This document shows, one piece after another, positions 2,581 to 24,000 of a DNA stretch of 24,000 nucleotides; within the stretch, counting starts at the first letter, position 1; every line of letters begins with the position of its first letter. The translations under genes were made by a program, and so were the position numbers. Source of the stretch: an uncultured Methanosarcinales archaeon (GTDB taxonomy: Archaea; Halobacteriota; Methanosarcinia; Methanosarcinales; Methanosarcinaceae); assembly GCA_964434965.1 (NCBI GenBank), contig CAYSWX010000023.1:1-24000 (forward strand). The letters run 5' to 3'. The notes beneath the pieces were generated by a model that did no database searches, was not told the origin of the DNA, and saw nothing but the letters and a program-made list of their open reading frames with translations.

Positions 2581-2588
2581 AATGAATT

Positions 2589-2612: not shown

Positions 2613-2631
2613 TTTTTTGCGCCACCTCAAA

Positions 2632-3030: not shown

Positions 3031-3196
3031 TGATTATTCCCTCTTAGGTTATCCCCTCAGTAATCGGGTAGTTTCCATAATTTCCCCTGTCCATTATTCT
3101 ATCTGTTACTTTCTATCACTGCACTATCCGGGTGCTCTGGTACAGCTAACTATGGAATACATATCCTGAGGTAAGAGAAGTACAGTCTCCAACAGT

Positions 3197-6944: not shown

Positions 6945-7976
6945 TCAGTCCTCTTCTTTTCCGTTCTTTTCCAGGATCTCTCTTGCTTTTTCCATCTCTT
7001 CCTTCGTATGGATCTTTATCATCTTTCTGCGTTCTTCACTCATCTGCGACATGTCCTGGGCAAGGAGGCCGTAAGCATCAGCCCTGCACTGCCTGCAGTG
7101 GCGCATTTGCATAACATAAGGTTCGCAGGCTTCCTGGACTGCTTTTCTTTCTTCTGCTGTAGGAGGCTCTATGTCTGCAAAGGCTCCCTGGTTGATCAGG
7201 GGCATGACATTCATAATGTAAACCCCAAGTTCGTTGAGTTTTCTGGCAATCTCAATTACGTGCTTATCATTTATTCCAGGGACAAGCACAGTGTTAACCT
7301 TTATAACCAGACCTGCATCAATAGCAGCCTTAATCCCTTCAAGCTGGTTTTTGACCTGAATTTCTGCAGCTTCGACTCCCCTGTAGACCTTCCCGTGATA
7401 AACTATGTGGTCCACTATTTTTGCCTGAATTTCGGGGTCGATAGCGTTTACCGTTACAGTCAGCGTGGAAACTCCAACCCTCAGAATGTCCTGCAGCTTT
7501 TCGGGAAGCAAGAGTCCGTTTGTACTCATGCAGAGAGTAAGCTCCGGAAACTCTTTTTTTATCAGCTCAAATGTCTCAAAGGTCGCATCATTAGCCAGAG
7601 GGTCACCTGGACCTGCAATCCCGACAACTTTGATGAACGGATAATCTGCCACTATCTGCCTTGTCTTCTCAAGAGCTTCCTGCGGGCTCAGGACCTTACT
7701 GGTAACCCCGGGCCTGCTCTCGTTTACACAGTCAAATTCACGGACGCAGAAATTGCACTGGATATTGCATTTCGGAGCCACAGCCAGGTGAATTCTTCCG
7801 TATTTATGCTGCGCTTTCTTATCATAACAGGGGTGCTCGGCAATCTTTCTAAGGAGTTCCTCTCCAGATGCGGGGCTATTATCGGTGTTGTTTACAGATT
7901 GGTTTTTTTCTGGCAAATTATTCTCCTCCGTTCGGAACTTAAAAGTGAAGTAAGATCTCAGTAAAAGGGATTTCAA
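6945..7976 (-). CDS. nifB: Radical SAM FeMo-cofactor biosynthesis protein NifB (short archaeal form)
   Basis: HPCYDKKAQHKYGRIHLAVAPKCNIQCNFCVREFDCVNESRPGV and the C-terminal MRHCRQCRADAYGLL are hallmark NifB motifs. 343 aa with no NifX-like extension. Confidence 0.85.
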   Translation of the reverse strand: MKSLLLRSYFTFKFRTEENNLPEKNQSVNNTDNSPASGEELLRKIAEHPCYDKKAQHKYGRIHLAVAPKCNIQCNFCVREFDCVNESRPGVTSKVLSPQEALEKTRQIVADYPFIKVVGIAGPGDPLANDATFETFELIKKEFPELTLCMSTNGLLLPEKLQDILRVGVSTLTVTVNAIDPEIQAKIVDHIVYHGKVYRGVEAAEIQVKNQLEGIKAAIDAGLVIKVNTVLVPGINDKHVIEIARKLNELGVYIMNVMPLINQGAFADIEPPTAEERKAVQEACEPYVMQMRHCRQCRADAYGLLAQDMSQMSEERRKMIKIHTKEEMEKAREILEKNGKEED

Positions 7977-8075: not shown

Positions 8076-8438
8076 TTAATTTGAAAAGTTGTCCATCTCG
8101 CACCATTTGCCTTCTCCTTCCCAGACCCTCACCAGAAGAGAAAAGCCGAATCTCTCCAGGAGGCGGGAATGGATATGCTGGCAGAGGTGCTCGGAACTTG
8201 GGAAGTCCAGGATCTCATTTAATAAAGTATGGTCATACTCCTGAAGAGTTTCCTTGATACCTTTTTTCAGGTCATAGAAATCAATCACCATCCCATTCTC
8301 CCTGACCTCACCTTCTACCACCACTTCGATTTTATATGTATGGCCGTGTACCCTTCCGCACTTCCCGTGCCCTGGAAGGTAGTGCGCGCTGTCAATATAA
8401 TCAATAACTCCCAATCTCATATTTGCCATTTCATTCAC
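8076..8438 (-). CDS. queD: 6-carboxy-5,6,7,8-tetrahydropterin synthase
   Basis: 120 aa. CGRVHGHTYKIEV and the overall PTPS/QueD pattern. Clustered with queE and queC. Confidence 0.9.
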   Translation of the reverse strand: MNEMANMRLGVIDYIDSAHYLPGHGKCGRVHGHTYKIEVVVEGEVRENGMVIDFYDLKKGIKETLQEYDHTLLNEILDFPSSEHLCQHIHSRLLERFGFSLLVRVWEGEGKWCEMDNFSN

Positions 8439-8460
8439 CTCTTTTTTGATTTTCTTTAGG

Positions 8461-9228
8461 TTATAAGCAACCCCACATCCTGTGGGTCTGTGGAATAATT
8501 CGCGTGTCGGTCAGCTCAAGCAGGTTTTTCTGCAGCTTCAGGAGAGTCTGCACGGATGCCTGCGTAAACCCCGGAGCCCTTGCTGCACTGCCCAGAGGCG
8601 TTTCAGGCTGAAGAACTATACAGGATACATAGGGTGCTATTGCTTCTGCAGCCATTGTTACGGTATCCGTGTTTGTTTCCCTGCCTATTACAATCTTGCA
8701 AAAGCAGTCTCTTGAATTACTTTTTCTCAGGAGCTTGAAGCACTCAATCGTATTTTCCACATGTGTTTCCCTGTTTTCAGGGCAGATGTCCTCAATAGCC
8801 TCTGGTAGTTTAAAATCCCCTGAAACATATGCGATATTTTCACGCAGCTTTCTTGCCTGCTCAGGCAGGGTCATATTGGATTCCAGGTACAGGGGCACGG
8901 AAACGTCAAGTTTTTCTATGAAATCCGCATGCAGAAGAGGCTCTCCTCCTGTCAGGGAAATGGAATGGAGCTTTTTGAAAGGATGCAGCATGGATTCCAG
9001 CTTTTCGATACTTACAGGGTTTGGAACCTTTTCAAAAACTCCACTGCCCTCTTCTCTTTCGTAGTCGCAGGTTCCAGGATTTCCAAAATCCGTGTCACAG
9101 TAATTGCAATTAAGGTTGCAGCCTGAAAACCGGACAAAAGCCTGCCTCACACCAACATACGGGCCTTCTCCCTGCACGGAACAGAAGACCTCTCTTATAT
9201 GAGCAGATTCATGGTTTTGAGAGGACAT
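8461..9228 (-). CDS. queE: 7-carboxy-7-deazaguanine synthase (radical SAM)
   Basis: [32 protein letters not shown] is the characteristic QueE N-terminus with a Cx3CxxC-type cluster motif. Confidence 0.9.
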
Positions 9229-9789
9229 TTACACTACTCCGAGAGGCCGTGACTTCCTGAGGTCCTTTTCAATATCCTCAAATTCCCTTACATAAGCATC
9301 TCCGATTCCCTTCATTAGCCGTACAATACTTTCATCGTCTTCTATTCCGGCTTCTTTCAGGTTTCCGTATACTTCATGTGTGACATTCATGCCGAAGTGG
9401 ATCTTCTGGGAAACCGCCGAAGTGCTGGCAATCGATACGGTCAGCTTCTTTCCCTTAAAAAATAAATCATCTCCTTCCCTTGTGGTATGGATTCCAAGCC
9501 CTGCAAGGTATTCCCTTACAATTGCAGTAAAAAGGCGCTGGCGTGCATAGATCAGTTTAAGGTCAGTAGAATCGAAGTGTTCTATAATGAAATTCAACAT
9601 ATCTTCGGACCAGATCGACTCGTTTGCCTTCCGGTCTTCTAGGTCAATCATGTGTTCTATTTTTACGTCACATGCACCTCTAAAAACTATAATGGAATCT
9701 TCCTGCACTCCAAAGCTGTTATAAGCCCAGAGCGAAGAAATCTGGCTCCCGTCGTAATCAAGTTTTTCGGGTAAAATAATACACTTCAT
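9229..9789 (-). CDS. Uncharacterised 186-aa protein inside the preQ0 operon (possibly the archaeal DUF366/COG2029 family)
   Basis: Intact ORF whose stop abuts the queE start with no gap (9229 vs 9228). I recognise no catalytic motif. The family name is recalled from memory, not verified. Confidence 0.6.
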   Translation of the reverse strand: MKCIILPEKLDYDGSQISSLWAYNSFGVQEDSIIVFRGACDVKIEHMIDLEDRKANESIWSEDMLNFIIEHFDSTDLKLIYARQRLFTAIVREYLAGLGIHTTREGDDLFFKGKKLTVSIASTSAVSQKIHFGMNVTHEVYGNLKEAGIEDDESIVRLMKGIGDAYVREFEDIEKDLRKSRPLGVV

Positions 9790-9846
9790 GGAACTCTCTC
9801 TATCTCTCTATTATTGTTTTTAATCTCTCTAACGGATTATTCGGGT

Positions 9847-10542
9847 TTAAACCCCAGGCTTTTCCAGAAGCGGGTCTTTTGAACCTGCGTTTTTGAATGC
9901 CCTTTCCCTGCGCACGCAGCTTTCACACTCTCCGCAGGGGATTTCCCCGCCGTGATAGCAGCTCCAGCTGTATTCAAGTGGAGCATTTGCTTCAAGAGCC
10001 CTTTTAACAATTTCAGTTTTCCCCATTTCTATAAGAGGAGCCAGTACCCGCACCCCGTTCTGTGTGGAGTAAGAAAAAGCATGGTCCATTGCCTTTACAT
10101 AATCAAGTGAATTGTCAGGGAAGGTCCCGGCTTCTTCTCCATTAAAGCCCACCACTATGTAATCACAGCCCCTGCTTTCAGCAAAGCTCCCTGCAATGTT
10201 TAACATAACCCCGTTTCTGTTTGGGACCCAGACAGCCTTTGCAGAATTTTCGGTAATTACGGCAGGCGCAGCCTCATCAATATCTTCAAGGGATAGAGAA
10301 GGGACTTCCTCACTCCTGTTTACAAGGGATGTATGTGTTATTTTCCCAAGCCAGTCCAGCTTGATTATCCTGTGCTCTATTCCAAAGTATTCGCAGACCT
10401 TTCTGGAATACTCTATTTCCCGCTGCCCGGCTCTCTGCCCATAATCAAAAGTAATTGCCATATCAATTTCCAGGCTTTCGGCTGCGATCGCAAGCGCTGC
10501 GACGGAATCAAGCCCGCTGCTCATGAGGGTTATAGCTTTCAT
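9847..10542 (-). CDS. queC: 7-cyano-7-deazaguanine (preQ0) synthase
   Basis: N-terminal PP-loop [14 protein letters not shown] and the C-terminal zinc motif [18 protein letters not shown]. Confidence 0.9.
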
Positions 10543-10715: not shown

Positions 10716-11231
10716 ATGAGGTGGGATTGTTTGATAGGAATTATTTCGGATTCACATGATGACCTGGCATCTATCCGGAAGGCCGTGGAATTCTTCAACA
10801 AAAAGCAGGTAAAAGTGGTGCTGCATGCAGGAGACCTCATCTCTCCTTTTACTGTGAGGGCTTTTAAAGAACTAAATTCAAAACTCTATTTTGTCTTCGG
10901 AAACAATGATGGAGATAGAGTAACTCTTGTAAAGAGGTTTGAAGAAATAGATGCCATCTCCTGCGGAGATTTTGGTGACCTGACAATTGACGGGCTTCAT
11001 ATTGCCCTCCTTCATGGGACAGATGAGACTCTGGTCAAAGCACTTGCAAAATCAGGGGATTTTGATGTCGTTATCAGAGGGCATACTCACGAACCCGGGG
11101 TCCGGATTCTCGAAGGAACCCTGATTATAAATCCCGGAGAATGCTCAGGGGTACTTTCCGAAAAGCACACAGTTGCGATTCTTGAGATTGCAAACCTGAA
11201 CGTTGAGATTACGGAACTTGAATCTGATTGA
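10716..11231 (+). CDS. YfcE/MJ0936-family metallophosphoesterase
   Basis: GIISDSHDD, HAGDLISP, GNNDGD and RGHTHEPG motifs. The true start may be the in-frame TTG at 10734, giving (M)IGIISDSH. Confidence 0.85.
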   Translation: MRWDCLIGIISDSHDDLASIRKAVEFFNKKQVKVVLHAGDLISPFTVRAFKELNSKLYFVFGNNDGDRVTLVKRFEEIDAISCGDFGDLTIDGLHIALLHGTDETLVKALAKSGDFDVVIRGHTHEPGVRILEGTLIINPGECSGVLSEKHTVAILEIANLNVEITELESD

Positions 11232-11310: not shown

Positions 11311-11438
11311 ATTATAAAGTTATTCTCCGTCCCGTCTGGGTGTCAGTTGAAAGGAAAATATGAATTATATAAAGGTGGACGCCCTTCTTTTATTTCAATA
11401 TCATTTGAAACAGTATTTCACTAAAGGTTGTTATAACA

Positions 11439-11870
11439 ATGGAATCAAAAGAAAAAGAGCAAAATGAATCAATGGAGCAGAAAGAACCCATGCCAGGCAG
11501 GCTTAACAAAACGGAAAACTCTTCAGGAAAAAGGAGACGTACTCTCATTTTTGCCTGTTCCGGTTTATCAAATACGGGGAAACTCACAATGCAGGCAGCG
11601 TCAACCCTTGCTTTCAGGAGTCCGGACCTTTACAGGGCTGCATCTGCACTGAAGGGGACCTGCGCTGTTGAAGATGCATTATCAGAGGGCTTTAGAATCC
11701 TTGCTCTTGACGGCTGTGCGGACAGGTGTGCTACAAAAAAGCTTGGCGAGGCAGGAATGCAGGCCGAAGTCTATCTTATGGTTACTGAGCTAGGAATTGA
11801 AAAAACAAAACCCGCAGATGTGAAACTGGAGTATATAAACAAAATTATACGTGCAATAAAAGAAGCCTGA
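11439..11870 (+). CDS. DGC-domain putative zinc-binding protein
   Basis: LIFACSGLSNTGKL...ILALDGCADRCATKKL matches the DGC-domain signature: a conserved Cys near the N-terminus plus DGC-x3-C. Confidence 0.75.
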   Translation: MESKEKEQNESMEQKEPMPGRLNKTENSSGKRRRTLIFACSGLSNTGKLTMQAASTLAFRSPDLYRAASALKGTCAVEDALSEGFRILALDGCADRCATKKLGEAGMQAEVYLMVTELGIEKTKPADVKLEYINKIIRAIKEA

Positions 11871-11925: not shown

Positions 11926-12627
11926 TCAATAACCCCGTCTTAGAATACCTGTCAGTTCCTCTGCATGAGGCATCCTTTCTTCGATTTTTGCACAGACTGC
12001 ATCAATATCATACTCCAGGCGTAAGAATTCCATCTCTCCTGTTTTGGTATCTAAAACCGCACAGCCTGCTCGGGCGTCCCCGTCTCTTGGCTGCCCCACA
12101 GAACCAGGGTTTATGATTTTCAGGGCCCCGAGTTTCCTGTTCATAGGGATATGAGAGTGCCCGACCACCAGAAATTCGGCATCAACAGGTTCCATCGGTT
12201 CTGCAAGCATTGCCACTATGTCTTCATCTGGGGTTTCGGGTTTTATATATTCGAACATGGAGCGTGGGCTTGCATGGGTAAGGTAAAGCTTTTTTCCATC
12301 AATTTCTTCTTTTATCAGGAGGGGGAGCTTCTGCAGGTACTCCATCCTGGGTCGGTCAAGAATTTCCCAGGTATATTCCCGGGTTGCAATTGAGAGATGT
12401 TTGTATTTGTATCCGCACTTGCAGTCCATTTTAAAAGCAACAGCATTGTCGTGATTGCCCCTTATTGTTGGAATATTCTTTTTTTGCAGGAGATCTATAC
12501 ACCTGTCCGGGTCAGGTCCGTAGTCCACAATGTCTCCCAGGCAGATTGCCTTATCATGTGGGACATCGAGGACTGTCTGCAGTGCTTCAAGATTAGCGTG
12601 GATATCGGCAATCAGTAGAAGTCTCAT
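11926..12627 (-). CDS. Calcineurin-like metallophosphoesterase
   Basis: LLIADIHAN, LGDIVDYGPDP, RGNHD and VVGHSHIP motifs. Confidence 0.85.
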   Translation of the reverse strand: MRLLLIADIHANLEALQTVLDVPHDKAICLGDIVDYGPDPDRCIDLLQKKNIPTIRGNHDNAVAFKMDCKCGYKYKHLSIATREYTWEILDRPRMEYLQKLPLLIKEEIDGKKLYLTHASPRSMFEYIKPETPDEDIVAMLAEPMEPVDAEFLVVGHSHIPMNRKLGALKIINPGSVGQPRDGDARAGCAVLDTKTGEMEFLRLEYDIDAVCAKIEERMPHAEELTGILRRGY

Positions 12628-12691: not shown

Positions 12692-14620
12692 TCAAACATG
12701 TAGTCCCCGCATCCCCACTCCCATTACAAGCAGGTTTGTTTCCATAGGAGGGTGGTTCCAGCCGTCAGGAGAGATAATTTTCTTCTCTATAGAAACCTCA
12801 ACCTGGTTTCCGCTGAGTCCGCAGTCTTTCATATAATCTTCAATAAGTTTTTTTCCAATTTCGGTTGCAGCACTCAGGGCTTCTGTGTATGCATCGAACC
12901 TCAACCTGTTGCCGGGTGCAAAAACAAGGAAATCTCTCTCTGGAGACATCAGACTTGCAGGCCTGATTAAAATTTCTACTCTTTTGATGCCTTTTCCTGC
13001 AAGGGCTCCGACTGCATTTCCTACCTCAGCATGTTCGGGAACGAGAATTTCAGCATCTATAAACTCCTCCAGTTCTTTCCTGTATGCACGTACAGGGCCT
13101 CCGAGCAGGATAACAGGGACTCTCAGCTTGAACTTTGCAGGATAATTTCCGTCAAGGATTTTTTCAACGGCTGTGTACGGTACTCCCTGAAGGATATATG
13201 AGAGGAGGTGAAGTGCCATATTCCTTGCAACTCTCCTTTTTACAGCAGTGCAGAACTCATGGGGTGTCATACGCATGAGCCTCGCAAGCCTTTCAGCTCC
13301 TATTCTGGAAGCTTCTTCGTTCCAGGCTGTATATTCCCCGAGCACATGCAAAGCATCGGTTGGAGTAAAGCCAATTGCCTGAACAAGACGTTTTTTGATA
13401 AGGGAGTCCAGGGTTTGAGGGTGGAGGTCCTTTCTTATGAGGGCTTTTATCTCATGCACGGAAACCGGTTCGTCTACAATTGCGCCAAGAACTTCCGCTT
13501 CAACTTTACTCAACTCACCTGCTGGGTAGCCTGACCTAACGAAAAATTTCGTGGGCTGGATATTTTCTTCCAGGCCTTCTCTGAGAGGCATGGGCGTTCT
13601 ATTCAGGTTATTTAGGAAACCTGGATACTGGACTGCAGCGACTGCAAGGGGTATAACCCGTCGAGGCCCGAGGAAGAGTTCCCTATCTACTGTCCATATA
13701 TGGCTGTCTCCGCCTGTAGCTGTTGTCGCCATTCTTATCGCCCGCACCCGCGTCTTCCATCCGCCCACAACTGCTCCTTCATCGCTCAGGTCAGGAACTC
13801 CCATACAGATCGAGGAAATATCCGTACTCGTTCCCCCAACGTCTACAACTGCACAGGTTTGCAGCCCTGAGAGATAAGAGGCTCCTACAAGGCTTGCTGC
13901 AGGGCCTGAAAAGATCGTTTCTATCGGCTTTTGCAGGGCATCTCTTATCCCTATCACCGAACCGTCGCATTTGAGCATAAGAAGCCTTGCATTAATTCCT
14001 CTTCCTGTCATATCTGCAATAATGGATTTCACAAACTGCCTGGTTATGGGAATCAGCTGGGCATTCAGGAAAGCTGTTACCGTCCTCTCGTAAGCTCCAA
14101 GTTCCTGCGAGAGTTCGTGTCCGCAAACCGCAGGCAGCCCTGTAAGCTTCAGTATTCTGTCCTTTACTTTAAGCTCGTGTTCAGGGTTGCGTGTACTGAA
14201 ATAAGAAGATATGGCAAAAGCCGATACTTTGTCCTTTACAAGCAGGGCGAATTTTTCGATGGCTTCCAGGTCAAGAGGAGATGCTTCTTCTCCATTATGG
14301 TTATGCCCTCCTCTGGCAAAGAGAACATGCCCTGTTGGCAGTTCCTTTTCAAGCGGGTGGTCCCCTATGAGGATCAGGGCTACGGGAAAACCGGTTCCTT
14401 CAAGTATGGTATTTGTGGAAAGAGTGGTGGAGACAGATACCAGTTTTACGTTTTCAATGTACTCCGGATTAAGCCCGTCAATTGCCTTTTTGATGCCGCC
14501 AAGAGGGTCAGGATAGGTGGTCAGGGCTTTATTTGAGTCTACAATTTCCCCATCCGAGTCCCTTACGAGCACCGCATCTGTGTAAGTTCCACCAGCGTCA
14601 ATTCCAAGGCTGTAGTGCAT
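12692..14620 (-). CDS. Hydantoinase/oxoprolinase-family (ASKHA-fold) protein
   Basis: N-terminal GIDAGGTYTDAVLV and a second VVDVGGTSTD phosphate-binding motif. 642 aa. Confidence 0.8.
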   Translation of the reverse strand: MHYSLGIDAGGTYTDAVLVRDSDGEIVDSNKALTTYPDPLGGIKKAIDGLNPEYIENVKLVSVSTTLSTNTILEGTGFPVALILIGDHPLEKELPTGHVLFARGGHNHNGEEASPLDLEAIEKFALLVKDKVSAFAISSYFSTRNPEHELKVKDRILKLTGLPAVCGHELSQELGAYERTVTAFLNAQLIPITRQFVKSIIADMTGRGINARLLMLKCDGSVIGIRDALQKPIETIFSGPAASLVGASYLSGLQTCAVVDVGGTSTDISSICMGVPDLSDEGAVVGGWKTRVRAIRMATTATGGDSHIWTVDRELFLGPRRVIPLAVAAVQYPGFLNNLNRTPMPLREGLEENIQPTKFFVRSGYPAGELSKVEAEVLGAIVDEPVSVHEIKALIRKDLHPQTLDSLIKKRLVQAIGFTPTDALHVLGEYTAWNEEASRIGAERLARLMRMTPHEFCTAVKRRVARNMALHLLSYILQGVPYTAVEKILDGNYPAKFKLRVPVILLGGPVRAYRKELEEFIDAEILVPEHAEVGNAVGALAGKGIKRVEILIRPASLMSPERDFLVFAPGNRLRFDAYTEALSAATEIGKKLIEDYMKDCGLSGNQVEVSIEKKIISPDGWNHPPMETNLLVMGVGMRGLHV

Positions 14621-14730: not shown

Positions 14731-15059
14731 AACGAAGTAAAATGGTGTGATAATGCAAAATAATATCTGAAATTATTAAATATATATCTATTTCAATAAG
14801 ATTTGAAATGGTTAAAATATAGTTTGAGCTGATCAAACCGAATGTGATAGAGAGTCCATAACCTAACTTTAAAAATTACTTGCAGTTGTTCAGAACGGTA
14901 GATGAAATCCAGAGAACAGGGGCAGGCGTGGACCAGTAAATCAGGGGGCACTCTTTTAGGGCAAACCATTAATTACTTTCTTTTCCAAAAAATAGAGAAA
15001 TAAAAAAGTAGAGAATAGCCTTCAATTAGATGCTAAGTTTAAGAGAAACTTAAAAGGAA

Positions 15060-15770
15060 TTGACTGTTATGACTCCAGCAAAACCCGCTCAGAATTCCAT
15101 TCCCCATCTCCCTGAGGACTACGATGCCCGGATATCTCTTATTCTCCCTTACTACTCGTCTTTTCATCAGGAAATTATCAACTTCGTCAAATCCCTGCCT
15201 TCAAGCCCGAAGGTATGGATGGATACCGGATGTGGGACAGGCTCTCTGATTAATAAGGCAATTGAAGAATTTCCCTATACGAAATTCCTTTTACTTGACC
15301 CTTCGGAAGGAATGCTGGAGCAGGCAAAGCAAAAACTATCGGCTTACCCTTCCGCAAAGGTACAGTTCCTGAAAGCTTCCCCTACTCAGGAATTTTCTCA
15401 GGAATTGGAAGAAAAGCCGGACGTTATCACTGCTATACAGTGCCATCACTACCTCAGCCGCGAAGGGCGTGCCAGAGCTGCCAGTAAGTGTTATAATTTA
15501 CTAAAAGAAGATGGAATTTACATTACCTTTGAGAACATCAGGCCGCTAACAAAAGAAGGTGTGACCATAGGAAAAAGATACTGGGGAGACTTTCAATCAA
15601 CGCATGGGAGGAACGACGAAGAGATACAGAAGTATCTTGAGCGGTTTGATACTGAGTATTTCCCAATAACTGTTGAAGAACATCTGAAACTGTTGAGAGA
15701 GACAGGGTTCAGGGCTGTGGAGTTATTCTGGTACTCTTATATGCAGGCTGGGTTTTACTGCATTAAATAA
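15060..15770 (+). CDS. Class I SAM-dependent methyltransferase
   Basis: Motif I WMDTGCGTGS, with an acidic residue at LLLDPS. The ORF-track start is a TTG, and the ATG at 15069 is an alternative. Confidence 0.8.
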   Translation: MTVMTPAKPAQNSIPHLPEDYDARISLILPYYSSFHQEIINFVKSLPSSPKVWMDTGCGTGSLINKAIEEFPYTKFLLLDPSEGMLEQAKQKLSAYPSAKVQFLKASPTQEFSQELEEKPDVITAIQCHHYLSREGRARAASKCYNLLKEDGIYITFENIRPLTKEGVTIGKRYWGDFQSTHGRNDEEIQKYLERFDTEYFPITVEEHLKLLRETGFRAVELFWYSYMQAGFYCIK

Positions 15771-18121: not shown

Positions 18122-18553
18122 TCAGTACCAGCCCTTAAGGTGAAGCTCGTCTGTTAACATATCCTTTAAAAGGTTCAGCCTGTCGATGGAATTCCTGATC
18201 TGTTCAGGCTTATCTTGCAGTTCTTCGCATCCGGTTTCTTCCTGAATGGTTGTAACCCTCAGGAGTTCAGCAAAATTTACACACTCGTCAAGAAAGCTGT
18301 TAAACAGCCTTCGAGCCTTCACAAAATAGTCCGAGGTCCTGAAGTCCGGCTGAAGGGTTTTTTCATACTCTGCCCTTTGCTTCATTTCTGCAGCCAGTAC
18401 TCGTGCTTCAACATAGTCCCCGATATTCAGAAAATTTCCCAGATTCTGCAGGTTTGTCCCGATGTGCTGGATAAAATATGCAACCTCAAAAGCCCACTGT
18501 TTATCATAGTCCGTTCTGGAGCCGGAGTTATAAGAAAAGGAGTTCATCTGCAA
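18122..18553 (-). CDS. Hypothetical protein (about 141-143 aa, predicted helical)
   Basis: Intact ORF. The ORF-track start is a TTG. The ATG at 18547 with AGGAG 13 nt upstream is the likelier start. No family recognised. Confidence 0.5.
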   Translation of the reverse strand: MQMNSFSYNSGSRTDYDKQWAFEVAYFIQHIGTNLQNLGNFLNIGDYVEARVLAAEMKQRAEYEKTLQPDFRTSDYFVKARRLFNSFLDECVNFAELLRVTTIQEETGCEELQDKPEQIRNSIDRLNLLKDMLTDELHLKGWY

Positions 18554-18759: not shown

Positions 18760-18779
18760 ATATCAATTATTTTTGATAC
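18760..18779. promoter_or_regulatory. Operator-like inverted repeat ATATCAA-TTATTT-TTGATAc overlapping a TTTATATC TATA-like box
   Basis: Read directly. Near-identical to the repeat at 20389-20408. Lies upstream of the small ORF and first AhpD-like gene. Confidence 0.4.
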
Positions 18780-18868
18780 TCGTGCATGGTTTTTTAATGC
18801 TGATTTTCAATATTTCTTAAAAGGAATTGAGTTTGGATTAAGAATTGTCGAGCTAAGGAGACAGGATA

Positions 18869-19021
18869 ATGGAAAATAAAAAGGAGATTTTGCCAGAGGA
18901 AGAGAGTTCAGAAAAGGATAAACTGGACGATGATGAAGACCTTCTATATACACATAAGCCCGAGTCCCGCGGCAATGAAATGCGCTGGAACACCAGTTTG
19001 TGCAGAAAACCCGGCCGCTGA
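18869..19021 (+). CDS. Possible 50-aa acidic small ORF
   Basis: My own translation: MENKKEILPEEESSEKDKLDDDEDLLYTHKPESRGNEMRWNTSLCRKPGR. AAGGAG lies 8 nt upstream. The competing antisense ORF (18853-19044) is Ser-rich and low complexity. No homology recognised. Confidence 0.25.
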   Translation: MENKKEILPEEESSEKDKLDDDEDLLYTHKPESRGNEMRWNTSLCRKPGR

Positions 19022-19096
19022 TACTGGATAAATACCTGAAACATATTAACTTTTTGAATATATTATTTCATTTTAACTTTAACCGGAGGAATTTAA

Positions 19097-19444
19097 GTGT
19101 CATTTTTAAACGACATGTTACCTGAAACCGCTGAAGCTTTCGGACAGATGAGGAATTCCATTTTCAAGGATGGCTTCCTTGATGTCAAAACAAAAGAGCT
19201 AATCGCAATTGCCTCTGCGGTACTTATGCGCTGCCAGTTCTGTGTTGATGCGCACTCTCAAAGGGCAGTTGCTGCCGGGGCTGCAAAGGAAGAAATTGCC
19301 GAAGCAATTGCCGTTGCCATGTTCGTTGCTGCCGGGTCGCAGATTGGGTGGGCGAACGTGTATGGTGAAAGCATATATGATAAAATCTTTAAAAAGGATA
19401 AAGACGAAGAGGACTCCTGCTGTTGCTGTGGAGAGAGAAAGTAA
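19097..19444 (+). CDS. AhpD/carboxymuconolactone-decarboxylase-like CxxC protein with a C-terminal CCCC tail (copy 1)
   Basis: KELIAIASAVLMRCQFCVDAHSQRAVAAGA is the CMD/AhpD CxxC..H signature. The C-terminus reads DSCCCCGERK. GTG start with GGAGGA 6 nt upstream, and the N-terminus is collinear with copy 2. Confidence 0.85.
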   Translation: MSFLNDMLPETAEAFGQMRNSIFKDGFLDVKTKELIAIASAVLMRCQFCVDAHSQRAVAAGAAKEEIAEAIAVAMFVAAGSQIGWANVYGESIYDKIFKKDKDEEDSCCCCGERK

Positions 19445-19499
19445 ACTCTGAATTTCCCGAATTTTACGGACCTCACACATGCTTAGATAGACTGTGGTT

Positions 19500-19859
19500 T
19501 TATTCCAGTTTTTTGTTTTGTACCTGAGATATTGTCTTTAAAATTCCTGCAAATTCAGGGTTCAGCCTGTAAAACCGCCATTTTGAGCTGTTGTAGGCTT
19601 CGATGATCCCGCAGTTTTTCAAAATTGACAGGTGATGGGAAACAAGGTTCTGCCTCTCGTTTAACTTGAATATCAGTTCGCAGACACAGTGGTCTCTCTG
19701 GGAGAGAAAGTAGGTAATCTTCAATCGAATCGGATGTCCGAGAGCGCTGAATATCTCACTGGCTTTTTTGATGTCATTGTCCAGAAAATCTATTTCCTGA
19801 ATCATTTTCTCTTCCCATTCTTTCTTTTTCTCGGGGTCTGCAGGGCAGCAATAACTCAT
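19500..19859 (-). CDS. arsR: ArsR/SmtB-family metalloregulator with a CVC As(III)-type site
   Basis: The HTH region LGHPIRLKITYFLSQRDHCVCELIFKLNERQNLVSHHLSILKNCGII contains the CVC motif in helix 3. There is also an additional vicinal Cys pair at the N-terminus (MSYCCP). Confidence 0.85.
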   Translation of the reverse strand: MSYCCPADPEKKKEWEEKMIQEIDFLDNDIKKASEIFSALGHPIRLKITYFLSQRDHCVCELIFKLNERQNLVSHHLSILKNCGIIEAYNSSKWRFYRLNPEFAGILKTISQVQNKKLE

Positions 19860-19985
19860 AATTAAAAGAAGTTAAGTTTTCTAAATAAGAGTTTTCATAT
19901 CAATTTCAGAATTCATTCCCGGGCTATTTCATGCCTGGTTTAATGTTTATTTACTTTCCCCTTGTTATTTTTTCCTTTGAATAGC

Positions 19986-20300
19986 TCAATTAAATTCAAT
20001 ACTGATACTCCTTGCTTTTTTTGCCAGTGACTTTGCCATAAAACCGCTTTCCAATTTGCAGAGATTAAGTATTGCACAGGGCACAAGGCAGTTTGAGGAA
20101 CACTGTGCTTCCTGTGCTTTATCGATTACATAGTTCTTCTTGATGTCCAGAGTTTCCATCATGGGAATTTGCATATGTGAAAACTTTTTTATTTTTTCAC
20201 ATGGGGTTTCAATATCTACAATAATCTTATCTCCTTTCATGCTCCCCTTGATTTTGTGGGTAAAACCGCAAATGGTAGAACTTACTATAATTTCGCTCAA
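19986..20300 (-). CDS. Small six-cysteine protein of unknown function (copy 1, 104 aa)
   Basis: Intact ORF, about 79% identical (82/104 by manual alignment) to the ORF at 23033-23353. Conserved Cys residues are at 11, 34, 67, 71, 75 and 81 (C-x3-C-x3-C-x5-C). It lies upstream of arsR on the same strand. Confidence 0.7.
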   Translation of the reverse strand: MSEIIVSSTICGFTHKIKGSMKGDKIIVDIETPCEKIKKFSHMQIPMMETLDIKKNYVIDKAQEAQCSSNCLVPCAILNLCKLESGFMAKSLAKKARSISIEFN

Positions 20301-20388
20301 TCTGTCACCTTTTTTCTTGGATTATTATCATATCACGGATTCTCTTTATTTCCTTTTTATTATTTTTCTTTTTATATCCCTATTTTGA

Positions 20389-20408
20389 ATATCAATTCTC
20401 TTTGATAT
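20389..20408. promoter_or_regulatory. Operator-like perfect inverted repeat ATATCAA-TTCTCT-TTGATAT in a divergent promoter region
   Basis: Read directly. Lies between the six-Cys gene/arsR operon (minus strand) and AhpD-like copy 2 (plus strand). Second occurrence of the motif seen at 18760-18779. Confidence 0.45.
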
Positions 20409-20461
20409 GTGGCTTTCTGTATTTTATAAACCAAGATTGTAGAATTAAGTGGAGGAATAAT

Positions 20462-20812
20462 ATGCCATTCATAAACGAAATACTGCCTGATACCGCTGAA
20501 GCATTCGGAAAACTGAGAGATTCTATCTTCCAGGGTGGAGAGCTTGACCGCAAGACCAAGGAACTCATAGCCATTGCCTCTTCTGTCCTTATGCGCTGCC
20601 AGTTCTGTGTTGATACGCACTCCCAGAGAGCTGTTGCTGCCGGGGCTAGCAAAAAAGAAATTGCAGAGGCTATTGCCATTGCTATGTTTATAGCCGGAGG
20701 CTCTCAGCTCGGTTGGACAAATGTTTATGGCAAGAGCGTTTATGACATCATCTTTGGAGAGAAAAAGCCTGAGGAGTCCGAAAAAGAGAAAGGTTGCTGT
20801 TGTGAAAACTGA
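20462..20812 (+). CDS. AhpD/CMD-like CxxC protein with a C-terminal CCC tail (copy 2)
   Basis: About 75% identical to copy 1 over 98 aa by manual alignment. Has the same MRCQFCVDTHSQRAVAAGA core and ends KGCCCEN. I place the start at ATG 20462 (GGAGGA 5 nt upstream, collinear with copy 1) rather than the ORF-track start at 20402. Confidence 0.85.
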   Translation: MPFINEILPDTAEAFGKLRDSIFQGGELDRKTKELIAIASSVLMRCQFCVDTHSQRAVAAGASKKEIAEAIAIAMFIAGGSQLGWTNVYGKSVYDIIFGEKKPEESEKEKGCCCEN

Positions 20813-20950
20813 AGAATAACTGAAGAACAAGTAAAAAATAATTGAAGAAATAACTGAAACTTTGAGCTTCAAGCTCATTATTTAATGACTCATCAGTTAT
20901 TTTTACGAGTTTTCTGCTTCTTTCTTTTCTCTCTTTTCTCTATAACCTTA

Positions 20951-22003
20951 TCAAAACCTGAATTTTTCCCTGTTCCTTTCCATAATCTTCACAAGGGAAA
21001 GCATAACAGGCACTTCCACAAGCACTCCCACAACTGTTGCTAGAGCAGCTCCTGATTCCATCCCGAATAGAATTAAGGCTACTGCCACTGCCAGTTCAAA
21101 GAAATTGCTGGCGCCGATAAAGGTTGAAGGTGCAGCTTCCATGTAAGGGATTTTCAGGTATTTTGCTCCTGCATAACCGATCCAGAAGATCAGGTAAGTC
21201 TGAATCACCAGAGGGATTGCGATCAGGAGAATGTGCAGGGGATAATTTATGATGTTTTTTCCCTGGAATATAAAAATCAGGACCAGAGTAATTAAGAGCC
21301 CGGCAGGAGTGATCCACTGTGTTTTTTGAATGAGTTTGTTTTCAAACCAGTCAATGCCTTTTTTCCTTATCACCACCTGTCTTGTAAGCACAGCAAGGCC
21401 GAGGGGAATTGCAACATAAAAAAGGACAGAAACGAAGATTGTCATAAGAGGGACAGGAAAGTCAGTTGTGACTCCGAGGAGAAACTTTCCTAGTGGGGCA
21501 AAAAGGACCAGGATGATAAGGTCATTTACTGAGACCTGAATCAGAGCATAATTAATATTCGCTCTTGCAAGATAAGTCCAGACGAGTACCATAGCCGTAC
21601 AGGGGGCAATCCCAAGCAGGATCATGCCTGCGATATACTGAGCCTGAAGGTCAGCATTGATCAGGGATTCAAAGAGCACGCGCATAAAGAGCCATGCAAT
21701 AAATGCCATTGTAAAGGGCTTGATTACCCAGTTTATGACGAGAGTCAGAAGGAGGGGCTTTAGATTTGCTTCAACGTTCAGAATTTCTTCAAAGTTGATT
21801 TTAAGCATGATAGGGTACATCATGATCAGGAGCACAACAGCTACGGGAATTGAAACATTTGCAATCTCAATCCCTCCAAGAGTGTCCGCAAAACCTGGAA
21901 AAATATAGCCTATTGCAGTCCCGAGTATTATACAGACCGCAACCCAGATAGAGAGATATTTACTGAAGAAATCTAGTTCCCTTTCTTCCTCCTCTTCAGG
22001 CAT
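20951..22003 (-). CDS. acr3: ACR3-family arsenite efflux carrier
   Basis: 350 aa and polytopic. MYPIMLKI, LLGIAPCTAMVLVW (the conserved transport Cys), GASNFFELAVAVA and VGVLVEVPVML are characteristic ACR3 motifs. Confidence 0.9.
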   Translation of the reverse strand: MPEEEEERELDFFSKYLSIWVAVCIILGTAIGYIFPGFADTLGGIEIANVSIPVAVVLLIMMYPIMLKINFEEILNVEANLKPLLLTLVINWVIKPFTMAFIAWLFMRVLFESLINADLQAQYIAGMILLGIAPCTAMVLVWTYLARANINYALIQVSVNDLIILVLFAPLGKFLLGVTTDFPVPLMTIFVSVLFYVAIPLGLAVLTRQVVIRKKGIDWFENKLIQKTQWITPAGLLITLVLIFIFQGKNIINYPLHILLIAIPLVIQTYLIFWIGYAGAKYLKIPYMEAAPSTFIGASNFFELAVAVALILFGMESGAALATVVGVLVEVPVMLSLVKIMERNREKFRF

Positions 22004-22883
22004 ATTCCTCCCCTTCGTCCCACTCTTCTCCGTCGAACTCTTTGCTTGCAGGGATGATCATCACAGGCTTTGCGGTTTTCCGGAGTACGTTTTCTGCCGT
22101 ACTCCCGAGCAGTATGTCCATTAAATCTCCTTTCCCACGGGTGGTCAGCATAATCAGGGTGATATCTTCTATACTGGCAAGCTTAACAATTTCATCGGAT
22201 GGGATGCCCTCAACGACAAGGCACTGGCTTTTTATTCCTTCAACCCGTTCCTTTATTTTCCTGAGCTTTTCTTTTGCCTCTTCTCTCTGTTCATCCAGAA
22301 GGTCCATATCTTTTATATCATCTATCACATGGATGAAAAGAACCTCTTTTATGACCTCTTTAAGCTCCTGAAGCTGTTCGACCGCTTTCATTGACCCTTT
22401 CGAAAAATCCAGAGGCATAAGGATCCGCGAGAAAGTTGCCCTGCACGCCTTCTCATAAACTTCTTTTCCTTCTTTCAGAGCATCATACTTTTCGACCAGC
22501 AGCATTTTTTTTGAACTGCGTGCTATATATTCCGTAGTCCTTCCGAGAAATTTCCCTTTTATAAATCCTTCAGTGGTGGCTCCCATTATTATAGCATCAA
22601 CATCTTTTCTGTCGGCTATTTCCGAAATTGTCCTCTTTACATCTCCTACTATTACCAGGGGTTCGGTTTCAAGTTCAAGTTCGCTTGCAAAGCCTGTGTA
22701 GTCCTCGATTCTTTTCTCTGCATTTCGTTCAAACATAGGGGTAAGCCCCTGGCTTTTATGTATGTCCACCACATGCAGCAAAATAACCTTCTTCAAGCCT
22801 GCGTTTTTAAGTTCCCCTATGCAGCCAAGCAAATCTTCCGTTTCGATAGAAAAATCCACAGGAACGAGTACTGTGCTTATCAT
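21996..22883 (-). CDS. Tandem universal stress protein (2x UspA domain)
   Basis: Two Usp-like halves begin VLVPVDFS... and ILMPLDFS..., and each ends with a G-x2-G-x9-GS-like ATP motif (TTRGKGDLMDILLGSTAENVLR). Its last 8 nt overlap the acr3 start. Confidence 0.85.
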   Translation of the reverse strand: MISTVLVPVDFSIETEDLLGCIGELKNAGLKKVILLHVVDIHKSQGLTPMFERNAEKRIEDYTGFASELELETEPLVIVGDVKRTISEIADRKDVDAIIMGATTEGFIKGKFLGRTTEYIARSSKKMLLVEKYDALKEGKEVYEKACRATFSRILMPLDFSKGSMKAVEQLQELKEVIKEVLFIHVIDDIKDMDLLDEQREEAKEKLRKIKERVEGIKSQCLVVEGIPSDEIVKLASIEDITLIMLTTRGKGDLMDILLGSTAENVLRKTAKPVMIIPASKEFDGEEWDEGEEYA

Positions 22884-23032
22884 CTGCTGTCAGCAGCCCC
22901 CTTTTATCTTCTATTTGCTTTTTCAGGTCTTACTTTTCAGCAACCTGATCTTTCTCAAGCCCATAATTATGTCTTTATCAGTAATAGCTTGATGCACTGA
23001 AGTTAAAAAAGAAGAGGTGTTTTTCACCCAGC

Positions 23033-23353
23033 TCATACTTCATTAAAATCAATACTGAGGCTTCCTGCTTTTTTTGCCAGTGACTTTGCGATAAATCCGC
23101 TTTCCAGCTTGCAGAGGTTAAGCACCCCACAGGGCACCAGGCAGTTTGAGCAGCATTTTGCTTCTTTTGCCCTGTCTATCACATAGTTGTCTTTGATATC
23201 CATGGTTTCCATCATGGGAACTTCCATATGCGAGATTTGCTTTATTTTTTCACACGGAGTTTCGATATCCACAATGATTTTTCCACCTTTCATGCTTCCA
23301 CAAATTTTGTGGGTAAAGTCGCATATTGTAGAGTTGACGGTAATTTCAGCCAT
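23033..23353 (-). CDS. Small six-cysteine protein of unknown function (copy 2, 106 aa)
   Basis: Paralog of 19986-20300 with the same six Cys positions plus two extra (Cys18, Cys68). Confidence 0.7.
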   Translation of the reverse strand: MAEITVNSTICDFTHKICGSMKGGKIIVDIETPCEKIKQISHMEVPMMETMDIKDNYVIDRAKEAKCCSNCLVPCGVLNLCKLESGFIAKSLAKKAGSLSIDFNEV

Positions 23354-23405
23354 ATGCCCACCTCAATTCATTTTTGAATTCAATTTTCAGGTATCTGAAG
23401 ATATT

Positions 23406-23439
23406 AATTAATCCTTACCATGGTTAATAATTAATCCTT
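23406..23439. repeat. Direct repeat AATTAATCCTT x2 flanking the palindrome ACCATGGT
   Basis: Read directly: 23406-23416 and 23429-23439, with ACCATGGT at 23417-23424. Lies in the spacer between the thioredoxin-fold gene and six-Cys copy 2. Confidence 0.7.
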
Positions 23440-23499
23440 CTCCAAAGATGGAAATTTGTATTAATTCTGAATATTTTGGGTCTGGCAGGTTCAAGATGC

Positions 23500-23730
23500 T
23501 CATTCAATCCATTTTCGGATTTCCTTTTCATCCGGAACCTTGCCTGCAAGCTTAACTTCGCCATCAACCACAACTGCAGGTGTGACCATTACGCCGTAGT
23601 TCAGGATCGTTTCAATGTCCTCCACTTTGACGATTTCAGCTTCAACACCATTTTGCTTCAATACTTTTTCAATTGTTTCTTTTGTTTTCTTACATTTTGA
23701 ACAACCAGTTCCAAGAATTTCGATTTTCAT
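23500..23730 (-). CDS. Small thioredoxin-fold redox-active disulfide protein (CxxC)
   Basis: 76 aa. MKIEILGTGCSKCKKT...VMVTPAVVVDGEVKLAGKVP matches the pattern of the 'small redox-active disulfide protein 2' family, which commonly sits next to DUF318-type permeases. Confidence 0.8.
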   Translation of the reverse strand: MKIEILGTGCSKCKKTKETIEKVLKQNGVEAEIVKVEDIETILNYGVMVTPAVVVDGEVKLAGKVPDEKEIRKWIE

Positions 23731-23775
23731 ATTTTTAACCTCGTGTTTTGTTTTCTATTGTTTTGGTTTCTCGAA

Positions 23776-23809
23776 ATTTTATTCTGTCTTAACATTTTAT
23801 TCTGTCTTA
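23776..23809. repeat. Perfect 16-nt direct repeat ATTTTATTCTGTCTTA x2 (18-nt period)
   Basis: Read directly at 23776-23791 and 23794-23809. Lies in the 101-nt spacer between the permease stop and the thioredoxin-fold gene start. Confidence 0.8.
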
Positions 23810-23831
23810 TTAAGTTTCAGAACTCTTAATC

Positions 23832-24000
23832 TCATAGAATTATGTTAAATAGATATCCCGTAATAATTATGGATATACTCACAATTATCACAAAGGCAGC
23901 TATCAGTTCGTTTTTAAGCACTTTTTTCAAGATTATCATTTCTGGAAGAGAAAGCGCAGTTACTCCCATAAGGAAGGCAAGAGCAGTGCCTACTGGAAGT
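23832..24000 (-). CDS. C-terminal end of a DUF318/ArsP-like permease (partial, continues beyond the window)
   Basis: My own minus-strand translation: ...LPVGTALAFLMGVTALSLPEMIILKKVLKNELIAAFVIIVSISIIITGYLFNIIL, then a stop. The hydrophobic SLPEMIILKKV segment resembles the C-terminus of the predicted-permease (DUF318/ArsP) family. Only 55 residues are visible. Confidence 0.55.
   Translation of the reverse strand, partial: LPVGTALAFLMGVTALSLPEMIILKKVLKNELIAAFVIIVSISIIITGYLFNIIL

Follow-up and report, generated by a model that had tools for sequence, protein, structure and literature searches.

A 24-kb stretch of DNA from an uncultured Methanosarcinales archaeon (24,000 nucleotides of contig CAYSWX010000023.1, analysed at full length and called the window below) ends in an island of cysteine-rich genes that includes an ArsR repressor and an ACR3 efflux permease. 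A preliminary description had placed ten co-localised genes at 18760-24000, and open reading frame (ORF) listing together with profile searches using Pfam and NCBIfam models recovered every one of them (Table 1). Their clustering looks like one ArsR-type regulon, not like chance. The core of the island belongs to the ars kind, with ArsR plus ACR3 and ArsP plus ArsE, and it is accompanied by two copies each of DUF6951 (PF22263) and of an AhpD/CMD-family protein (CMD1 and CMD2). On our best reading, DUF6951 would be a three-cysteine (Cys3) protein that binds soft metal(loid)s and hands them off, and CMD a thiol oxidoreductase with a poly-Cys tail. That the region is the core of a Methanosarcina ArsR-type regulon directed against thiol-seeking metalloids, with a DUF6951 hand-off and a CMD relay, is a proposal that, judged from sequence, we consider about evenly poised between right and wrong.

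Conserved gene order and shared operators

One genome per GTDB species was scanned within Methanosarcinaceae, which gave 77 loci with 91 DUF6951 genes. Neighbouring ORFs were labelled with the window proteins as queries; the rest were clustered, and recurrent clusters were named by Pfam and NCBIfam. A partner family (ArsR, ArsP permease, Trx_3/ArsE, CMD, ACR3, DGC, ArsM, MtrA-like, metallophosphoesterase or the gene for a 50-amino-acid (aa) protein, small50) lay no more than three genes from DUF6951 in 68 of the 91 cases; for ArsR, ArsP, ACR3, ArsM or an LMWPc ArsC-like gene at the same distance the count was 55. By our rough estimate, which was not computed, a random gene would be expected to show such neighbours in a few per cent of cases. 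Enrichment beside metalloid-resistance genes, on which the preliminary description had staked its hypothesis, is thus borne out within Methanosarcinaceae, where co-localisation goes far beyond chance.

The DUF6951 genes were grouped by context. Group (a), which includes window copy a, has the order Usp>ACR3>(CMD<)[DUF]>ArsR> CMD< small50<, and group (b), which includes window copy b, ArsR>ArsP>Trx3>[DUF]>Usp>ACR3. Group (c) consists of ArsP>Trx3>DGC>[DUF] followed by MtrA-like and ArsM genes on the opposite strand. Group (d), found in Methanomethylovorans and some Methanolobus, reads Trx3<MPE<ArsP< [DUF]>ArsR>small50> (MPE, metallophosphoesterase); group (e), from other Methanolobus, reads EamA>CMD>[DUF][DUF]; and group (f) contains the 'lone' copies (23 of 91), which sit in unrelated contexts. 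Groups a and b are separate orthologous groups across many Methanosarcina species. The conserved operon pairings are small50-CMD, DUF6951-ArsR, ArsP-Trx3-(DGC)-DUF6951 and Usp-ACR3, and poly-Cys CMD genes travel with DUF6951 genes. In four Methanolobus loci (L072, L075, L077 and L081), EamA>CMD>DUF6951 stands beside genes for a glyoxalase/bleomycin-resistance-fold protein (122 aa), a B12-binding corrinoid protein and a large PAS sensor; the ArsI C-As lyases belong to the glyoxalase superfamily.

The window was described as lacking arsC, arsD and arsA, and this was upheld: no ArsC, ArsM, ArsA or ArsD was found by Pfam on all ORFs of at least 120 aa, a search in which ArsD-sized genes below 120 aa were not exhaustively excluded, and tblastn with LMWPc-ArsC and ArsM from sister genomes found neither in the window. 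Sister islands, in contrast, carry ArsM (NF008823, 366 bits vs a cutoff of 263), and 10 sister loci carry LMWPc ArsC-like genes (120 bits vs an equivalog cutoff of 174). The absence of arsC and arsM is therefore a property of the window, not of the system. Also present in sister islands are DGC proteins, a Cys-rich metallophosphoesterase, CCCC101 (see below), DsbD_TM plus thioredoxin, and a hydantoinase-like protein. DUF1638 and a DEAD helicase were considered as functional partners and rejected; they are conserved chromosomal flanks of the Methanosarcina island.

The operators came to light when repeat analysis flagged a 19-nt match (D19) between two promoter regions of the island. Exactly four TCAA-N6-TTGA cores occur in the window, and all four are full dyads, either TATCAA-N6-TTGATA (class 1) or TTTCAA-N6-TTGAAA (class 2; Table 1). 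Shuffles yielded about 2 matches to class 1 even with 2 mismatches allowed, against two perfect sites observed. Over the 77 loci (1.22 Mb), class 1 was found at 83 perfect sites, 81 of them intergenic; among 59 control dyads whose half-sites had the same composition, the commonest occurred 7 times and the median was 0. The sites lay at stereotyped distances upstream of ArsP (17), ArsR (16), small50 (16, at 66-113 bp across sister loci), the HTH+FeS regulator described below (12) and DUF6951 (6), with CMD (6), Trx-DsbD (5), CCCC101 (4) and ArsM (1) as further targets. The spacing of 55 bp upstream of CMD recurs in four loci (L006, L008, L010 and L011), and stand-alone ArsR genes of the window type carry class 1 dyads at -56 and -136.

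Class 2 was represented by 45 perfect sites, compared with 0-2 for all other NNTCAA dyads, and often formed tandem pairs about 39 bp apart. These dyads stand upstream of the larger ArsP-Trx3-DGC operons, with ArsP, DUF6951, Trx3, CCCC101, ArsR and DGC among their targets, and they precede 5 of 6 DUF6951>ArsR operons of the Methanolobus/Methanomethylovorans ArsR class. Taking the sister genomes together, dyads precede ArsP-Trx3(-DGC-DUF6951), ArsR, CCCC101, Trx-DsbD, HTH+FeS-DsrEFH and ArsM. Which regulator binds which dyad is suggested only by autoregulatory placement.

CCCC101, which does not occur in the window, is a Cys-rich regulon member of 101-106 aa with an N-terminal SCCCCGP and no family match (L012:1594-1899, L014, L017, L023, L027 and others); it recurs beside ArsR-ArsP pairs and has a class 1 dyad some 25 bp ahead of it. 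The HTH+FeS regulator, of about 266 aa, combines an HTH with PF04060 ('putative Fe-S'); DsrE-, DsrF- and DsrH-like genes come after it, and a TATCAA dyad lies 120-170 bp upstream (L015, L019, L023, L026-L028, L030, L038, L059 and L060). This arrangement suggests a sulfur-relay branch of the regulon.

Island content differs between genomes, and 23 of the 91 DUF6951 genes are lone copies, as might be expected if co-localisation came about by chance or by hitch-hiking in a mobile resistance island that carries the unknown genes as unrelated passengers. Yet gene order is conserved across species and genera in context-specific orthologous groups, the small50-CMD and DUF6951-ArsR pairings are kept, the shared operator is more than ten-fold enriched over every control dyad, and no transposase or integrase is found among the recurrent neighbour clusters. 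We give this explanation almost no chance of being correct; conserved order and operator enrichment effectively refute it already.

Because the dyads at 11393 and 14791, as well as island-type genes, lie outside 18760-24000, the regulon is larger than the 5 kb originally flagged. The bounds of the island hold for the genes placed within them, but not as limits of the system: operators and genes for DGC, metallophosphoesterase and hydantoinase-like proteins are found at 10.7-15.8 kb, and in sister genomes further ArsR/ArsP/Trx_3/DGC modules lie beyond the position equivalent to 24000.

DUF6951 and the poly-Cys CMD proteins

Both window copies of DUF6951 score above the PF22263 gathering score of 27 bits (Table 1) and keep the three invariant Cys of the family. 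The two had been introduced as six-Cys proteins of 104-106 aa, which is right for copy a (6 Cys), whereas copy b has 8. At the DNA level the paired DUF6951 copies are 79% identical and the paired CMD copies 74%. DUF6951 is a rare family: a profile search returned 169 representatives at E<=1e-3 among 1.84 billion cluster representatives, and all close relatives are from Methanosarcinaceae. The only residues invariant across the family are Cys11, Cys34 and Cys71. Within Methanosarcinaceae, His15 and several more Cys are conserved as well, and His15 is not kept outside that branch.

A confident AlphaFold2 model of DUF6951 (pLDDT 91.8) has a four-stranded sheet followed by helices. Foldseek found no significant match to this model in the PDB (best E=0.54), and a PDB sequence-profile search returned solely non-significant matches to the bL33 zinc ribbon (residues 1-42, E 0.12-0.9), a likeness that we took as a hint and not as evidence. 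DUF6951 has no ArsD match in Pfam or NCBIfam, and a literature search found no paper naming the family. Two-domain fusions of 202-255 aa occur (P0224, P0228, P0279, P0302 and P0320), and Methanolobus genomes (L072, L076, L077 and L081) carry two to four tandem DUF6951 genes; both hint at a unit that works as a dimer or oligomer.

Outside Methanosarcinaceae, DUF6951 was followed by exact-sequence look-ups and by a metagenome scan of 65 loci that was biased to one distant clade. In that clade DUF6951 is the last gene of Peripla_BP_2/FecCD/ABC_tran importer operons: an ABC ATPase gene on the same strand lies directly upstream in 29 of the 65 loci, preceded by FecCD in 19, and a histone-deacetylase-family gene lies downstream in 28. 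In one locus (L092), the start of DUF6951 overlaps the stop of the ABC gene. The order Peripla_BP_2-FecCD-ABC_tran-DUF6951-Hist_deacetyl is conserved in L082, L091, L092 and L094-L135, with Csa3/HFX_2341-like and CBS-ParB genes downstream. Other members sit among corrinoid methyl-transfer genes (URO-D, MtrH, B12-binding, RACo), and in Methanococcoides the gene directly follows that of a CobW GTPase and lies between URO-D genes; some contexts were uninformative. Because of the importer-operon and corrinoid-gene contexts of these distant relatives, DUF6951 in itself is not an arsenic family. What its placements have in common is a position beside transporters (ArsP, ACR3, EamA, FecCD-type ABC) and metal or corrinoid handling genes, and the wider family speaks for trafficking of soft metals or corrinoids in general, not of arsenic alone. 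The idea that the duplicated pair serves a thiol-based metalloid function is partly backed by synteny, the shared operator and the invariant Cys, but has to be widened, since DUF6951 is not arsenic-specific.

The three invariant Cys, together with a His15 that is invariant within Methanosarcinaceae, would also suit a small metal-centre protein, with Zn(Cys3His) or an Fe-S centre on the three Cys, acting as a structural or electron-transfer partner and not as a metalloid carrier; it might, for example, be the reductant for a Trx_3/CMD disulfide relay or for corrinoid proteins. The non-significant bL33 similarity leans the same way, as do the redox, corrinoid or metal-insertion genes (RACo, B12-binding, URO-D, CobW) that neighbour DUF6951 in other lineages. 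His15, however, is not conserved beyond the Methanosarcinaceae branch, no ferredoxin or rubredoxin similarity was found by sequence or fold, and recurrent adjacency to transporters and a repressor is typical of chaperones and buffers, not of electron carriers. A metal-centre protein seems to us unlikely, with a small but real chance of being correct. A hand-off or sequestration role for DUF6951 fits best, because it would account for both the three invariant Cys and the repeated placement beside transporters.

The CMD proteins had been counted as the second unknown family. DUF6951 is indeed without literature, but CMD carries the full redox signature of AhpD. CMD1 has E-X11-CQFC-X3-H and ends in ...SCCCCGERK; CMD2 has the full E-X11-CXXC-X3-H signature and ends in ...GCCCEN. 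This is the pattern of M. tuberculosis AhpD (Glu118/Cys130/Cys133/His137). Among close homologues, E-X11-C-X2-C-X3-H is kept in 119 of 120 and a C-terminal run of 2-5 Cys in 116 of 120, which makes the poly-Cys tail a defining, selected feature of the subfamily. The solved structure nearest to CMD1 by sequence is 3bey (MTH O27018; E=5e-14). NCBIfam also has arsenic-linked AhpD-type models, namely an ArsM/AhpD fusion selenoprotein (NF041537) and an arsenosugar-associated peroxidase-like protein (TIGR04169). The window CMDs share the related domain but are not members, with 52.2 and 50.2 vs 120 bits for TIGR04169 and 36.9 and 38.7 vs 510 for NF041537. A literature search found no characterised CMD protein in an ars operon.

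Repressor, exporters and other genes of the window

Table 1. Genes and dyads of the proposed regulon in the window, with the profile matches or positions that identify them.
Feature	Coordinates	Strand	Match or position
YfcE-type metallophosphoesterase (171 aa)	10716..11231	+	PF12850 113.5 bits; TIGR00040 121.8 bits
Class 2 dyad TTTCAA-N6-TTGAAA, perfect	11393..11410		29 bp upstream of DGC gene
DGC-domain protein (143 aa, Cys-rich, putative metal site)	11439..11870	+	PF08859 80.7 bits
Metallophosphoesterase (233 aa)	11926..12627	-	PF12850 82.5 bits
Hydantoinase/oxoprolinase-like protein (642 aa)	12692..14620	-	PF01968 and PF05378
Class 2 dyad TTTCAA-N6-TTGAAA, perfect	14791..14808		Divergent intergenic region, hydantoinase-like gene / methyltransferase gene
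S-adenosylmethionine (SAM)-dependent methyltransferase (236 aa)	15060..15770	+	PF08242 70.1 bits
Class 1 dyad TATCAA-N6-TTGATA, perfect	18761..18778		91 bp upstream of small50
small50 (50 aa), first gene of small50-CMD1 operon	18869..19021	+	Conserved; no family
CMD1, AhpD/CMD-family thiol oxidoreductase (115 aa)	19097..19444	+	PF02627 76.8 bits; TIGR00778 59.7 bits
ArsR/SmtB repressor (119 aa), second gene of DUF6951a-ArsR operon	19500..19859	-	PF01022 (HTH_5) 53.4 bits; NF033788 77 bits
DUF6951 copy a (104 aa, 6 Cys)	19986..20300	-	PF22263 79.7 bits
Class 1 dyad TATCAA-N6-TTGATA, perfect	20390..20407		55 bp upstream of CMD2 and 90 bp upstream of DUF6951a (divergent promoter)
CMD2, AhpD/CMD family (116 aa)	20462..20812	+	PF02627 80 bits; TIGR00778 64.3 bits
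ACR3 arsenite/antimonite efflux permease (350 aa)	20951..22003	-	TIGR00832 equivalog 381 bits vs cutoff 282.8
Tandem Usp (295 aa)	21996..22883	-	PF00582 141.5 bits, two domains
DUF6951 copy b (106 aa, 8 Cys)	23033..23353	-	PF22263 75.2 bits
Trx_3, MTH895/ArsE-type thioredoxin-fold protein (76 aa, CSKC)	23500..23730	-	PF13192 101.5 bits; TIGR00412 108.5 bits
ArsP_1/DUF318 permease, C-terminal 55 residues; gene runs past window end	23832..24000	-	PF03773 47.2 bits

The ArsR protein scores above the cutoffs of PF01022 (22 bits) and NF033788 (55). Its CVC site was described correctly (Cys58-Val-Cys60), but an N-terminal Cys4-Cys5 pair has to be added; the Cys positions are 4, 5, 58, 60 and 83. In the class of window-type ArsR paralogues (25 members), CC + CxC is kept in 22. 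The arrangement of Cys4, Cys5, Cys58 and Cys60 is compatible also with CadC-type Cd/Pb sites, and metal specificity is not readable from it. Against the BigR model, ArsR gave a sub-threshold match of 42.6 bits (cutoff 155).

ACR3 carries the motifs APCTAMV and NFFELAV, and the stop of the Usp gene overlaps its start by 8 nt. The Usp-ACR3 pairing is kept in 26 loci, with a tandem Usp directly upstream of, and overlapping, acr3 in Methanosarcina islands. The second exporter is cut by the window end. In an identical contig from a public run (L002, of the identical contigs L001-L004) the full permease has 323 aa and an FCSCSS motif; by its ArsP_1/DUF318 fold and vicinal Cys-X-Cys (CSC) motif it is a probable ArsP, although it does not reach the equivalog cutoff of either SaoE or SO_0444. 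The adjacent Trx_3 protein exceeds the TIGR00412 cutoff of 62 bits and matches PDB 1ilo (MTH895) with E=3.6e-15; its match to ArsD is weak and sub-threshold (21.4 bits vs 27). Upstream of DUF6951 copy b, the intergenic DNA at 23400-23440 contains a short direct repeat, TTAATTAATCCTT ... TAATAATTAATCCTT, which is not a dyad operator.

The small50 ORF, dismissed at first as dubious, is a real conserved gene as judged by its sequence. It has no match in Pfam or NCBIfam, and its N-terminal half varies, but 25 loci from Methanosarcina, Methanomethylovorans and Methanolobus share a conserved C-terminal half, EDLLYTHKPE..M(R/Q)WN..(L/F)CR(K/R)PG. The single conserved Cys lies in the C-terminal LCRKPGR motif.

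Several observations weigh against a regulon for metalloids. In the 77 loci a perfect dyad is never directly upstream of Usp or ACR3, and in other Methanosarcina genomes the 11 canonical ArsR>ACR3 pairs lack one; as there is none at ACR3, the dyad regulon may answer to a signal other than arsenite. A perfect dyad within 200 bp was found in only 9 of 25 window-type ArsR operons. To these may be added the lone DUF6951 copies, the distant members without any ars context, and the DsrE/F/H-like, HTH+FeS and Trx-DsbD members of the regulon, which fit sulfur or redox stress equally well. The main rival explanation builds on such points: the dyad regulon would be a thiol, persulfide or redox-stress regulon, with ArsR paralogues that sense reactive sulfur or disulfide stress like BigR/SqrR. 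The repair or relaying of sulfur would then fall to CMD, Trx_3, DsbD-Trx and DsrEFH-like proteins, with DUF6951 as a small redox or sulfur-carrier protein and ACR3 simply parked nearby in some genomes. Along with the dyad-free ACR3 genes, this account draws on the presence in the regulon of DsrE/DsrF/DsrH-like genes, the HTH+PF04060 'FeS' regulator, DsbD_TM plus thioredoxin and AhpD-type oxidoreductases, on the lack of arsC in the window, and on the BigR match. That match, however, is far under its cutoff, and the CC + CVC arrangement of ArsR agrees with known metal(loid) sites. Furthermore, ACR3 lies within a conserved gene order between two DUF6951 groups in many species, ArsM and LMWPc ArsC-like genes are embedded in sister islands (one ArsM with an upstream dyad), and a homologous ArsR-ArsP-ArsE-DGC operon is arsenic-induced in a sulfate reducer. 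We consider a sulfur or redox-stress regulon unlikely, though deserving of serious attention.

Among the genes at 10.7-15.8 kb, the DGC protein is a divergent paralogue of the DGC encoded after ArsP-Trx_3 in sister islands, with which it shares 32% identity. The metallophosphoesterase at 11926..12627 is orthologue-like, with 59% identity over 232 aa to a cluster (c29) that lies between ArsP and Trx_3 in Methanomethylovorans/Methanolobus islands, and the YfcE-type enzyme at 10716..11231 is possibly an outlying member of the system, given its position beside the DGC gene and the dyad. The cluster of the hydantoinase-like protein (c10) occurs in 18 loci and adjoins small50, ArsR, ACR3 or DUF6951 in Methanosarcina, Methanomethylovorans and Methanolobus. 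Through the dyad at 14791, the methyltransferase is a possible regulon member; it matches the CpaM 'corrinoid protein-associated methyltransferase' model weakly (48 bits vs a cutoff of 180).

The rest of the window has other contents. At 18122-18553 (minus strand) lies a gene for a 143-aa protein without a Pfam or NCBIfam family, which recurs with 89% identity at the same island flank in sister Methanosarcina (clusters c28/c40). On the minus strand at 400-4383 there is a partner-switching module of bacterial style in this archaeon, made up of a HisKA/HATPase kinase with RsbU_N, a SpoIIE/PP2C phosphatase, a small anti-sigma-like HATPase_c_2 kinase, STAS and PAS-STAS. A 7-deazaguanine (archaeosine/preQ0) cluster at 8076-10542, also on the minus strand, consists of PTPS/QueD-like, radical-SAM QueE-like, DUF366 and QueC genes. 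A second radical-SAM gene lies at 6945-7976, and the antisense ORF of 318 aa at 7008-7964 (plus strand), without a family match, is probably spurious. A comparison with Rfam turned up no RNA family here, and in the window the Pfam scan of ORFs of at least 120 aa found no MerB-like or ABC genes there.

A possible mechanism and its relation to known systems

Methanogens such as Methanosarcina lack glutathione, the thiol that buffers As(III) elsewhere. Against this background, the region has two exporters: an ACR3 translationally coupled to the tandem Usp, and an ArsP-family CSC permease paired with the ArsE/MTH895 protein. ArsR paralogues would bind the dyads and let go when a soft metalloid bridges their cysteines, the inducer most likely being As(III)/Sb(III) or a methylated form. 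In CgArsR, an N-terminal Cys-Cys pair and a third Cys from the other subunit form the site, and in each of ArsR, ArsD and ArsM three thiolates coordinate As(III). DUF6951, a compact protein with three invariant Cys plus the lineage-specific His15, may likewise bind the metalloid on three thiolates and act as a cytosolic buffer or hand-off chaperone between repressor and exporters. The flexible poly-Cys tail of CMD would capture the substrate or contact partner thiols, and its CXXC-H site would reduce the resulting disulfides or metalloid-thiol adducts, a tail-to-active-site relay for which MerA, whose C-terminal Cys pair feeds the redox site, offers an analogue. CMD and the Trx-fold protein could in this way keep the cysteines of the system reduced. 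Sequence evidence does not distinguish between reduction, sequestration and transfer, or single out arsenic as the inducer.

A bolder proposal, to which we attach little credence, would make DUF6951 a Cys3 hand-off family of anaerobes that links transporters (type II FecCD ABC importers; ArsP/ACR3/EamA exporters) to corrinoid or methyl-transfer chemistry. In methylotrophic methanogens, DUF6951, poly-Cys AhpD, MtrA-like and ArsP proteins would make up a dedicated pathway to capture and expel, or possibly demethylate, methylated As/Sb side products of methyl-corrinoid:CoM transfer, with protein thiols in place of the glutathione on which bacteria and eukaryotes base their handling of arsenic. 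Demethylation of arsenicals by Methanosarcina via DUF6951/MtrA-like proteins is kept solely as a low-probability option; M. mazei CZ1 is reported not to demethylate DMAs(III) (PMC10579292), which weakens the idea.

Compared with the classical ars operon (arsR-acr3/arsB-arsC, arsD-arsA), the window has in common an ArsR/SmtB repressor with CVC, a bona fide ACR3 and an autoregulated layout with a dyad, to which sister islands add ArsM and LMWPc-type ArsC-like genes. It differs in that arsC, arsA and arsD are missing and the repressor gene comes second, after DUF6951. Moreover, the ACR3 gene, coupled to that of a tandem Usp, has no dyad directly upstream, and most of the genes are Cys-rich accessories missing from textbook operons. 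The ArsP-ArsE-DGC module has already been described: As(III) and As(V) both raise the expression of an ArsR-ArsP-ArsE(PF13192)-DGC operon in Pseudodesulfovibrio mercurii ND132 (bioRxiv 10.1101/2022.10.17.512643). That operon (ArsR5-ArsP-ArsE-DGC(PF08859)) shares ArsR, ArsP_1, Trx_3 and also DGC with the present system, and sister loci of Methanosarcina show exactly ArsP>Trx3>DGC>DUF6951. As described, however, it has no DUF6951, poly-Cys CMD, small50 or ACR3/Usp.

In its possible role as a small cytosolic Cys-rich protein that is encoded with a metal-sensing repressor, regulated by it and placed beside an exporter, DUF6951 may be likened to ArsD, CopZ (with CopY) and SmtA (with SmtB), and the three-thiolate site of ArsD (Cys12/13/18) could be the counterpart of its three Cys. 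ArsD (thioredoxin fold), CopZ (ferredoxin-like) and SmtA (metallothionein) nevertheless have no sequence or detectable fold similarity to it. The window CMDs share the PF02627/TIGR00778 core and the full redox signature with characterised AhpD proteins (M. tuberculosis AhpD; PDB 3bey, 5dik and 1vke), but are single small domains (113-117 aa) with no AhpC partner nearby and with a conserved C-terminal run of 2-5 Cys that characterised AhpD does not have, and they fall under the cutoff of every NCBIfam equivalog.

The closest described analogue in spirit is Haft's selenocysteine-assisted organometallic (SAO) locus of Clostridia, with SaoE, SaoT, SaoD, a SaoC ending in CC, and FecCD-type/ABC uptake (bioRxiv 10.1101/2022.07.06.499078). 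The two are alike in theme: an ArsP-family CSC permease (SaoE), a thioredoxin-like SaoT, a DsrE-like SaoD, richness in CC and a proposed handling of soft metals or organometallics. Membership nevertheless fails every equivalog score (SaoE 113.7 vs 325 bits, SaoT 22.5 vs 65), there are no MerB-like SaoL and no selenoproteins here, and DUF6951, CMD and small50 are not SAO components. As far as the literature can be searched, the association of DUF6951 with islands under ArsR control is new, as are the conserved membership of the poly-Cys AhpD subfamily and the 50-aa protein, the coupling of tandem Usp to ACR3, and the two dyad operators by which a regulon is defined across Methanosarcinaceae.

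In rice paddies and aquifers, the methylation and demethylation of arsenic are driven by methanogens, whose own handling of the element is known only through homology to bacterial ars genes. The analysis provides a conserved gene set of DUF6951, poly-Cys AhpD, the 50-aa protein, tandem Usp and ArsP/ArsE/DGC, and it yields predictions that can be tested for two uncharacterised families, namely a metalloid site of three thiolates and a relay from tail to CXXC. With the operator, the regulon could be predicted directly in any Methanosarcina genome, and archaeal biosensors could be built on it. If DUF6951 is truly a chaperone, it would represent a new metallochaperone fold.

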